From an uncultured Pseudomonadota bacterium (GTDB lineage: Bacteria; Pseudomonadota; Alphaproteobacteria; UBA9219): 64,000 nucleotides of DNA. The notes under the pieces are model-generated. The model was not told where the DNA came from. It worked only from the letters and a program-made list of their open reading frames with translations, and made no database searches. The stretch spans positions 7,913 through 71,912 of the forward strand of contig CAIXLI010000063.1 in assembly GCA_903920205.1 (NCBI GenBank). Direction: 5' to 3'. Shown here one piece after another: positions 27,195-28,360 of the stretch. Every line of letters starts with the position of its first letter. Position 1 is the stretch's first letter. A program made the position numbers and the translations under genes.

Positions 27195-27728
27195 TTACGA
27201 ACCAAGCCCGTGTTTGAAGGGAGCTAGATGTTTTGAGGCATTTCCCAGAGAGAGACGTTTTGCGCAAGCATATTGATTGCGCCATTCTTCAATATCTTTC
27301 GCAATAACGGGATGCGCTGTCTTGAGTGCGCTAGCAAAATCAGAATTCAATTCCTCAAGGCTGACCGCAAAAGCGAGCACAAAGTGACGCGCCGTATTTT
27401 TTATACTAAGAATATCCGCCGGAAAATCGGTATTTTGAAATTCCTGTTGTTCTATTCTTGTCAGCGAGGCATCAATTCGGGCTGCGGCATCTTCCGGGCT
27501 TTGGCTTAATCGGAGTTGCTGGGCTATGCCGCCCGTGCTTACAACAAGATGGTTGACTTTCTTCTCACAAAAATCGAAGCCCTGCGTCCCTCCGAGACAG
27601 CAAGATTTTAACCAATCATCCTCTTTTCCATTTTTCTTGATCTGGTTGAACGCCTCTTTGGCATCTCGCTCCGCCTCGTGCAAAGCCCAAGCAAAACAAT
27701 CAAATTCACGGCTTTTATAAATACTCAT
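27195..27728 (-). CDS. hypothetical protein (about 178 aa) in a lower-GC segment
   Basis: Best start is MSIYKSREFDCFAWALHEAERD at 27728, with AAGGG upstream. Local GC is about 46% against about 56% in the flanks, judged by eye. No domain recognised. Confidence 0.45.
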   Translation of the reverse strand: MSIYKSREFDCFAWALHEAERDAKEAFNQIKKNGKEDDWLKSCCLGGTQGFDFCEKKVNHLVVSTGGIAQQLRLSQSPEDAAARIDASLTRIEQQEFQNTDFPADILSIKNTARHFVLAFAVSLEELNSDFASALKTAHPVIAKDIEEWRNQYACAKRLSLGNASKHLAPFKHGLGS

Positions 27729-27995
27729 GAAAAACCCTTTCTTCAAAATCATTCTTGCCACAGAAGCGTTATATGACACGTTCCATGTCGATAAAAACCA
27801 AAAAAATATAGTTAAGGTTTTTGGAGGAGACAAAGCATTGTTCCCGACAGCAACGTGGAGGAAAAACGATAAAACGGAGAGCGCGGCGGTACTGTTTTTC
27901 TTCGGCTTTAAGGGAACCCTTGCGGCGCGAAGCTGATTTTATTGCTTTTCTAAGCAGGAAAGCCTATAAAATACGCTTCAGATGTGGAGGGAAAA

Positions 27996-28286
27996 ATGAC
28001 CGGATTAAACGAAGAAGACCTGAAGAAAAACGTCAAGGACAAAGACACTTGGCTGCGTTTCCTCTATTTGGTCGTGTTTGGTGTCGCGTTTTATTTGTCG
28101 ATCCTGCTGACTTTCGCCGCCTCGGTGTTCCAATTTTTGGCGAAATTGTTTAGCGGCGCGGCTTTTGCGGGACTCGCCGACTTTGGCGACAATCTTGCGA
28201 CCTATCAAGGGCAAGTCACGCGCTATCTGACATTCTCGTCAGACGAAAAGCCGTTCCCGTTCGCGCCTTTCCCTACGAAGCAATAA
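27996..28286 (+). CDS. small membrane protein (DUF4389-like, 97 aa)
   Basis: MTGLNEEDLKK...WLRFLYLVVFGVAFYLSILLTFAASVFQFLAKLF, with two transmembrane helices. Confidence 0.5.
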   Translation: MTGLNEEDLKKNVKDKDTWLRFLYLVVFGVAFYLSILLTFAASVFQFLAKLFSGAAFAGLADFGDNLATYQGQVTRYLTFSSDEKPFPFAPFPTKQ

Positions 28287-28292
28287 AGAAAA

Positions 28293-28360
28293 TCCCCTCC
28301 CCTTTATGGGGAGGGTCAGGGAGGGGTGGGCCGCAAGGCTCATGGGGTTGCCTTGCGCCC
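28293..28360. repeat. REP-like GC-rich hairpin pair plus a G-quadruplex-type motif (GGGGAGGGTCAGGGAGGGGTGGG) in the gap upstream of metG
   Basis: Hairpin 1 is CCCTCCCC/GGGGAGGG with loop TTTAT at 28295-28315. Hairpin 2 is GCAAGGC/GCCTTGC at 28333-28356. Four G3-4 tracts lie on the plus strand at 28308-28330. Confidence 0.5.

Follow-up and report, generated by a model that had tools for sequence, protein, structure and literature searches.

Six low-GC orphan genes scattered through the housekeeping backbone of an uncultured alphaproteobacterium with Dot/Icm genes

Are small, AT-rich genes without known relatives, set one by one into a conserved chromosomal backbone, the cargo of a secretion system encoded in the same genome, or are they ordinary accessory genes? 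This question is raised by a 64,000-nucleotide (nt) stretch (henceforth the window) of contig CAIXLI010000063.1 (positions 7,913 to 71,912; assembly GCA_903920205.1), part of a metagenome-assembled genome (MAG) from an uncultured alphaproteobacterium. A first-pass annotation, made from the sequence alone, flagged six open reading frames (ORFs) in this window as orphan genes (ORFans) with visibly lower G+C content (GC) than their neighbors, and proposed them as candidate effectors of a Dot/Icm system or as accessory cargo. We refer to them as O1–O6 (Table 1). Bacterial ORFans are generally short, AT-richer than the core genome, poorly adapted in codon usage, and scattered singly along the chromosome. 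Here, we combine composition, homology searches, and comparison with syntenic relatives and find that O1–O6 are probably genuine coding, lineage-restricted accessory genes, each of which probably arrived as a cassette of ~0.5–0.7 kb.

All six ORFs are present at the positions first flagged, with O3 called at 51555–52010, and the genes called on identical public contigs encode proteins of 177, 98, 151, 145, 206, and 224 amino acids (aa) for O1 to O6, respectively. The whole window has a GC of 54.1%. Its lowest 1-kb GC bins are those of flagged ORFs (27–28 kb, 0.455; 38–39 kb, 0.471; 1–2 kb, 0.485; 56–57 kb, 0.487; 53–54 kb, 0.494). As a compositional reference, we used the 52 window genes with Pfam or NCBIfam support, for which GC is 0.551±0.027 (range 0.489–0.601) and GC at third codon positions (GC3) is 0.617±0.044 (minimum 0.519); intergenic DNA of the window has a GC of 0.465. 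Relative to this reference, GC3 z-scores of O1–O6 range from -1.6 to -4.5. In 10,000 length-matched samples drawn from annotated genes, a GC3 as low as that of O1–O4 and O6 never occurred (P<=0.0001), and that of O5 had P=0.013. Every ORFan also scores lower in synonymous-codon usage than the lowest of the 52 reference genes (z -2.7 to -5.9). In total GC, the weakest case is O3 (P=0.07). Windowed GC, GC3, and codon scores thus confirm the lower GC of the six ORFs, GC3 and codon scores differ clearly from those of the neighbors, and the observation is statistically robust. Other window genes without a Pfam match (those at 6300, 6722, 8323, 17883, 20301, 43077, and 60373) have near-normal total GC; the low-GC ORFans thus form a distinct class and are not merely everything that escaped annotation.

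The absence of recognizable domains noted at first reading also stood up to database searches. None of O1–O6 has a significant match in Pfam, NCBIfam, PHROGs, or PADLOC, their best family-library matches (E 0.01–0.1) being far under the curated cut-offs, and PDB sequence searches with O1, O3, O4, O5, and O6, as well as with a profile of O1, returned nothing below E 0.1. By tblastn, no ORFan matched any of 72,556 plasmids, and none of O1–O6 was found in 160 related loci; pattern scans of IMG/VR, with O5 and O6 among the scanned ORFans, revealed no relatives. Identical proteins are confined to a few contigs derived from metagenomes (NCBI; ENA samples BUCK21-1 and GROS21-1, which are lake-type sample names; Logan), and clusters of the ORFan proteins at 90% identity contain one to four members. 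Within the sequence collections covered, these searches show that the ORFans do not extend beyond the species and sister strains of it. Order-wide orthologues were not found: O3–O5 are absent from relatives whose Prs is 88–90% identical, and the genomes of the nearest species lack O1 at their syntenic DUF4389-MetRS locus. In their composition, their lack of homologues beyond close relatives, and their single placement between core genes, O1–O6 resemble bacterial ORFans at large; they differ in residing in a genome with Dot/Icm-type genes and in an exact sequence box common to O2 and O4. They are thus a well-known kind of gene, lineage-specific low-GC orphans, in a poorly studied host.

The most direct evidence for arrival as cassettes comes from the pth-dnaA region, for which we located syntenic relatives using Prs as an anchor: L170 (GCA_031291395.1; Prs 90% identical), L171 (GCA_028866275.1; 88%), and a sister strain (97%). 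In L171, pth, rplY, prs, rpsT, and dnaA are contiguous, with gaps of 267 bp between prs and rplY and of 253 bp between prs and rpsT; prs and rpsT of L170 lie 226 bp apart. A block of ~680 bp that comprises O3, its promoter, and a downstream hairpin is present only in the window, and alignments show its flanks to be conserved. Similarly, a block of ~590 bp (~53156–53745), made up of O4 and an upstream box, is absent from L170 and L171 between conserved flanks, and the sister strain has a 145-aa ORF at the position of O4 between prs and rpsT. O5 has no similarity in L170 or L171, both of which possess dnaA and the former also Dot genes; the region is rearranged. Presence and absence against conserved flanking synteny is therefore clean for O3 and O4, while both relatives lack O5. 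The initial description of each ORFan as a single-gene insertion accordingly holds for O3 and O4, with a less clean case in O5. O1, O2, and O6 are not polarized because the relatives at hand differ in gene order: a MetRS-anchored genome scan and a dnaA-anchored metagenome scan recovered relatives too distant or too rearranged to polarize O1, O2, O5, and O6. The insertion blocks lend the accessory-gene reading direct support for O3 and O4. Each cassette would consist of a gene with its own AT-rich promoter that settled in a core-gene spacer, and a GC3 near the intergenic GC together with poor codon usage would reflect recent gain or weak codon selection, with no amelioration.

A low GC3 near the intergenic value of 0.465 would also be expected if some of the ORFs were chance reading frames in AT-rich spacers that gene callers picked up, as is almost certainly the case for a further ORF at 54341–54613. 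O2, short and without clear purifying selection, would fit this explanation, as would the AlphaFold2 (AF2) models, which are poor for O6 (single-sequence predicted local distance difference test score, pLDDT, 42.6, unusable) and moderate for O1 (pLDDT 61.8, with a low-confidence tail from residue 155). However, the frames of O1, O2, O4, and O6 remain full-length in diverged strains, the ORFans show the coding-DNA pattern of higher GC at first than at second codon positions, and a plausible Shine-Dalgarno sequence precedes all of them except O3. Moreover, the spacers are 590–680 bp longer than in relatives and hence contain extra DNA and not old spacer. Together with the coding constraint shown for O1 and O6, these data make chance ORFs an improbable explanation.

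For O1, a word-index protein search returned the self match only, and an exhaustive HMMER search of 1.84 billion representative proteins yielded one true homologue, P0019 (151 aa), which is 41% identical to O1 across 81 residues without a gap (BLASTP E 1e-18). Apart from it, the three strongest non-self matches were translated tandem-repeat junk, in which 5–11 repeats inflate the scores. The homologue is found in an unrelated context, standing singly between a metA-like gene and other housekeeping genes of another MAG, and has a GC3 of 0.513 vs ~0.63 in its neighbors. Variants of O1 with 99% and 91% identity keep the full reading frame in three other samples, in which the order DUF4389, O1, Bax1-I, ATPase is also kept (four samples with the window); in one of these, O1 is 91% and Prs 97% identical. 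O1 is predicted to be all-helical (seven helices) and to end in a basic, disordered tail, and its conserved core reads GGIAQxLRLSxxPxD...ARxxVLAF..LExL..FAS. Comparison of its AF2 model with the PDB by Foldseek gave only non-significant helical-bundle matches (best E 0.56).

For O6, we compared the C-terminal 119 codons with the sister-lineage contig L174 and obtained 0.64 synonymous (dS) and 0.048 nonsynonymous (dN) substitutions per site, i.e., a dN/dS of 0.075; the adjacent GGDEF gene has a dN/dS of 0.054. This pattern of substitution is a clear sign of purifying selection on O6. It also bears on the idea that the ORFans were born de novo from pre-existing intergenic sequence and not from acquired DNA, an idea that would account for a third-position composition equal to that of intergenic DNA, for the lack of homologues of most ORFans, and for short proteins that are predicted to be helical or disordered. 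A dN/dS of 0.075 at a dS of 0.64 instead implies long-standing constraint, O3 and O4 lie in additional DNA blocks that relatives lack, and the distant homologue of O1 occupies a different locus in another MAG. We therefore judge a de novo origin to be very improbable.

No integrase or transposase adjoins any ORFan, flanking repeats are absent, Rfam detected no RNA of any kind, tRNA included, in the window, and its sole recombinase is the housekeeping XerC/D. The view that each ORFan stands alone among housekeeping genes, far from any mobility gene, was thus borne out, and the mobility genes, tRNA site, and direct repeats of a classical genomic island are not found with them. Small single-gene islets of this kind might in principle be remnants of phage, defense, or toxin-antitoxin modules, and O1 has a very weak match to HEPN_Swt1. 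This match was rejected, with a score of 13.8 bits far under the cut-off of 27.5 (E 0.075) and no evident Rx4-6H motif. Since PHROGs, PADLOC, IMG/VR, and plasmid searches gave no matches and partner genes, integrase, tRNA, and flanking repeats are lacking, such an origin is scarcely credible for these genes.

The proposal that the ORFans might be effectors presupposed a genome with a Dot/Icm system, a premise supported by the window itself, which encodes DotM, DotH, DotG, and a DotF-like protein. The Dot genes occur in small clusters among core genes, one after parAB (6300–8778) and one between dnaA and secA (57360–61494), the latter with the dotH-dotG-dotF-like series at 57654–61494. Small genes without database hits at 6300, 6722, and 8323 may be further Dot/Icm components. 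In L170 (2192–6967), MAPEG-DotH-DotG in inverted orientation, a DotF-like gene, and SecA adjoin dnaA, with identities of 75%, 65%, and 42% for DotH, DotG, and the DotF-like protein; the dnaA-adjacent cluster is absent from the relative with 88% identical Prs. Sequence comparisons of two markers place the host among alphaproteobacterial MAGs and not in the Legionellales. MetRS is 84–73% identical to proteins from MAGs labelled "Alphaproteobacteria bacterium", "uncultured Rhodospirillaceae", and "Bdellovibrionales bacterium" and ~70% identical to those of Azospirillum, Skermanella, and Thalassospira, and Prs matches agree. Since NCBI places Micavibrio under Bdellovibrionales, the latter label of relatives may mean Micavibrionales.

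Reviews describe a chromosomal Dot/Icm system as a feature of Legionellales, Piscirickettsia, and Fangia and discuss effectors for Legionellales and a few gammaproteobacterial relatives only (including PMC8896642); Dot/Icm effectors are poorly conserved even inside Legionellales (PMC8896642). Needham et al. 2022 record a protein-secreting type I T4SS (pT4SSi) for seven marine MAGs of the Micavibrionales, where the type IVB secretion system (T4BSS) appears only as a genome count (PMC9418006). Several of the nearest relatives of the window are deposited as "Bdellovibrionales bacterium"; placement of the host in the Micavibrionales is only possible, and no effectors are known from that lineage against which the ORFans could be set.

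With Dot/Icm machinery genes in the window, the effector idea is plausible, with the six ORFans as plausible but unproven Dot/Icm cargo. Like effectors of Legionella and Coxiella, they are lineage-specific, low in GC, without domains, and endowed with polar, flexible C-termini, and Dot genes are present in the genome; they differ from them in their alphaproteobacterial host, the missing Glu-rich signal, the missing eukaryotic-like domains, and the partial machinery of the window. The last 25 residues of the ORFans contain 0–4 acidic residues and carry a net charge of 0 to +4. Compared with annotated proteins, they are enriched in small, polar, Pro, and Gly residues (11.3 vs 7.5, Mann-Whitney P=0.003) and more positively charged (+2.3 vs +0.8, P=0.04). 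The tails of O1 and O3–O6 are probably polar, Pro/Gly-rich, slightly basic, and disordered. Dot/Icm substrates of Legionella and Coxiella carry a Glu-rich C-terminal signal, and the first-pass annotation suggested a search for such a signal or a hydrophobic one; the ORFan tails are instead polar or basic and lack an E-block. As the host is alphaproteobacterial and the acidic-signal rule derives from Legionella, this rule is possibly not transferable in either direction. Boxes of the PmrA/CpxR type were not found for the ORFans. The suggestion that ORFans in such a genome are the usual effector candidates therefore survives in part: Dot/Icm genes are present, but nothing specific marks the ORFans as substrates.

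In its strongest form, the effector idea would make all or most of the six dedicated Dot/Icm effectors that enter a eukaryotic host or bacterial prey, with the O2/O4 box as part of a virulence regulon. The T4BSS genes of the window, which are conserved in one relative, would fit, as would lineage-specific, low-GC genes that evolve fast (91% identity of O1 vs 97% of Prs; O2 ~10 times as diverged as its flanks), polar and probably disordered tails, the promoter box, and the position of O5, which abuts the dotH cluster. Yet every one of these features is common to ordinary orphan genes, O2 carries a transmembrane anchor, the box is missing from the other ORFans and from Dot promoters, and an acidic C-terminus, eukaryotic-like domains, structural similarity, and paralogous families are lacking as well. 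We consider this strong form unlikely. That at least one of the six ORFans is translocated stands at somewhat less than an even chance, and for any given ORFan translocation is rather doubtful. The soluble proteins O1, O3, O4, O5, and O6 would be the likeliest substrate pool for a Dot/Icm-like system, and the rest of the ORFans, apart from a probably envelope-anchored O2, would be low-expression orphan proteins acting intracellularly. A bolder version, which we regard as a long shot, would see in the ORFans a first view of the effector repertoire of a chromosomal, dispersed Dot/Icm-type system from an uncultured alphaproteobacterial lineage, possibly a Micavibrio-like one that may prey on bacteria instead of parasitizing eukaryotes, with a non-Legionella polar/basic C-terminal signal and with at least O2 and O4 co-regulated via TATTTACTTTCA-N5-GTATGTTA. 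The effector question is undecidable from sequence alone. If a few of the ORFans are T4BSS cargo, they would offer an entry to Dot/Icm-like biology outside Gammaproteobacteria, including its target cells, signal, and regulation; if they are plain orphans, they would be a tidy example of promoter-bearing single-gene cassettes in core-gene spacers with no visible mobility machinery.

Several points weigh against the view of O1–O6 as genuine, lineage-restricted cassette genes, some of which may serve as Dot/Icm cargo. For O2–O6, the evidence of orphan status comes from family libraries, from the sizes of their clusters, and from their absence in related loci. Homology of O6 halts at about codon 107 (window position ~1386) on two separate sister-lineage contigs (L174 and P0011), and the 137 nt adjoining the breakpoint (L174 1–137) encode the end of a short unrelated ORF, which suggests an insertion (possibly of a repeated element), a strain-variable breakpoint, or an assembly break within the sister-lineage O6. 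O2 differs from its sister variant (L172) at 7 of 297 nt, compared with 4 of 1815 in bipA, 8 of 1404 in the DEAD-box gene, and 1 of 293 in the spacer; five of the seven changes are nonsynonymous, so constraint on O2 is unproven. As to the effector part, the C-termini are not Glu-rich, no eukaryotic-like domain is present, O1 has no structural match, the six ORFans are not paralogous to one another, and polar disordered tails are equally typical of young orphan proteins. Finally, four Dot/Icm genes are seen, and DotL, DotO, DotB, DotC, DotD, and DotA are not in the 64 kb.

O2 is the weakest case for a gene; it either evolves fast or is free of constraint. A transmembrane anchor near its N-terminus (about residues 12–30; maximum hydropathy 1.94 at residue 12) makes a small protein anchored in the envelope the likelier reading. 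The promoter-like box that O2 shares with O4 is exact over 20 bases and occurs in the window only at these two genes (0 expected by chance). It constitutes repeat family D14 and is kept in sister loci. The box is absent upstream of the other ORFans and in Dot gene promoters, and a degenerate scan of the window, Dot promoters included, gave chance-level matches only. On the level of sequence, this suggests a common promoter or regulator for O2 and O4, whose proteins are otherwise unrelated. Scans for CtrA and DnaA boxes revealed nothing tied to the ORFans.

Table 1. Coordinates and composition of the ORFans and of associated features in the window (z, z-score relative to the 52 reference genes; pI, isoelectric point).
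Feature	Position	Strand	Description	GC	GC3	z (GC3)	z (codon score)
O1	27195–27728	-	177-aa orphan gene	0.459	0.421	-4.5	
O2	38688–38984	+	98-aa orphan between bipA and LysE-family gene	0.448	0.444		
O3	51555–52010	-	151-aa acidic orphan, pI 4.9, between prs and rplY leader	0.513	0.507		-4.2
O4	53303–53740	+	145-aa basic orphan, pI 9.3, in divergent prs/rpsT promoter region	0.477	0.486		
O5	56144–56764	-	206-aa orphan, convergent with dnaA, 4-nt overlap, adjoins MAPEG-dotH-dotG-dotF cluster	0.486	0.546		-3.9
O6	1023–1697	-	224-aa orphan between PAS-GGDEF gene and mnmG	0.505	0.507		
Box copy 1	38609–38633	+	TATTTACTTTCA-N5-GTATGTTA, ends 55 nt upstream of O2 ATG				
Box copy 2	53210–53234	+	TATTTACTTTCA-N5-GTATGTTA, ends 69 nt upstream of O4 ATG, within inserted block				
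DotM/IcmP homologue	6994–8295	+	Pfam DotM_C E 2.5e-46; NF033890 E 9e-49, below curated cut-off				
dotH (icmK)	57654–58787	+	PF12293 / PF03743 matches in dotH-dotG cluster				
dotG (icmE)	58777–60315	+	NF033900 E 4e-52				
dotF-like	60373–61494	+	NF038218 E 3e-6				
Divergent spacer O1/DUF4389	27729–27995	.	AT-rich	0.419			
DUF4389 small membrane protein	27996–28286	+	96 aa, normal GC3, Pfam PF14333				
Double stem-loop	28295–28372	+	two G+C-rich stem-loops in a row, DUF4389/metG spacer				

The surroundings of O1 were described at first reading as a DUF4389-like membrane protein and a repetitive extragenic palindromic (REP) hairpin. The former is correct: the protein matches PF14333 at 83.8 bits (E 7.8e-24), the gathering cut-off being 25. 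The genomes of the four nearest species (L009, L010, L013, and L014; 77–90% identity) also pair DUF4389 with MetRS and have other genes upstream, O1 being absent from this locus in all four. The spacer between O1 and DUF4389 contains a sigma-70-like site on the minus strand (27833–27805). The hairpin did not prove to be a REP element: like REP or miniature inverted-repeat transposable element (MITE)-like repeats, it is a G+C-rich intergenic structure 3' of DUF4389, but it is single-copy in the window (28295–28315) and outside the repeat families, and the one other match to the palindrome in the window is weak, an intragenic sequence with 2 mismatches. Because it is single-copy, the double stem-loop (folding free energy -56.1 kcal/mol, z -2.9) probably serves as a terminator or an attenuator. 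An orphan PilT/GspE-family ATPase gene (25230–26204, 324 aa) neighbors Bax1-I and O1, an arrangement kept in sister strains. The protein scores below the cut-off of every NCBIfam model (PilT 101 bits, DotB 58 bits) and could be a divergent DotB-like ATPase.

In the pth-dnaA region, a seventh low-GC ORF (54341–54613, plus strand, 90 aa) was rejected. The sister strain has no corresponding gene call, and the rpsT-dnaA spacer has a similar length of ~500–540 bp in all relatives, with partly conserved sequence (window 54195–54698). The apparent similarity that tblastn finds to the ORF in L170 and L171 looks like conservation of non-coding sequence. On this comparison the ORF is probably spurious, and the spacer could be a regulatory or leader region of dnaA. 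Non-coding DNA upstream of rplY (51260–51480; L171 10990–11215) is strongly conserved as well, e.g., CGGCACCCCTGGAGGCCG ... GTTGTCAGGGGGCGGCCACGA, gave no Rfam match, and may be a ribosomal-protein leader.

Related MAGs show scattered low-GC ORFs (0.41–0.46) among genes of 0.55–0.60 GC around metG (L011 9556–9987, 11523–12242, and 15482–15754; L012 13270–15090; L016 1170–2441 and 10100–10828). None of these ORFs is homologous to an ORFan of the window, and low-GC islets seem to be a lineage-wide habit.

Elsewhere in the window, the cumulative GC skew peaks at ~35000–38500 with a shift of ~0.04–0.06 for genes on both strands, a terminus-like polarity; nonetheless, genes associated with the origin (mnmG-rsmG-parAB, hda, and dnaA) lie in the window. 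Two large inverted repeats in intergenic DNA, one between gatB and a CobS-like gene (14351–14496; 43-nt arms, 93% complementarity, 60-nt loop) and one at 18448–18564 (33-nt arms, 82%), could be MITE-like or regulatory palindromes. In-frame tandem repeats occur at 23803–23947, with a Lys/Ala-rich 15-nt periodicity before an RsfS domain in a protein whose sister has a weak HC2 histone-like match, and at 50567–50677, with an Ala/Pro-rich 9–15-nt periodicity at the 3' end of the L25 gene. Upstream of xerC/D, a gene at 20301–22118 (GC 0.579) encodes a 605-aa protein without a Pfam or NCBIfam match that is kept in identical public contigs.

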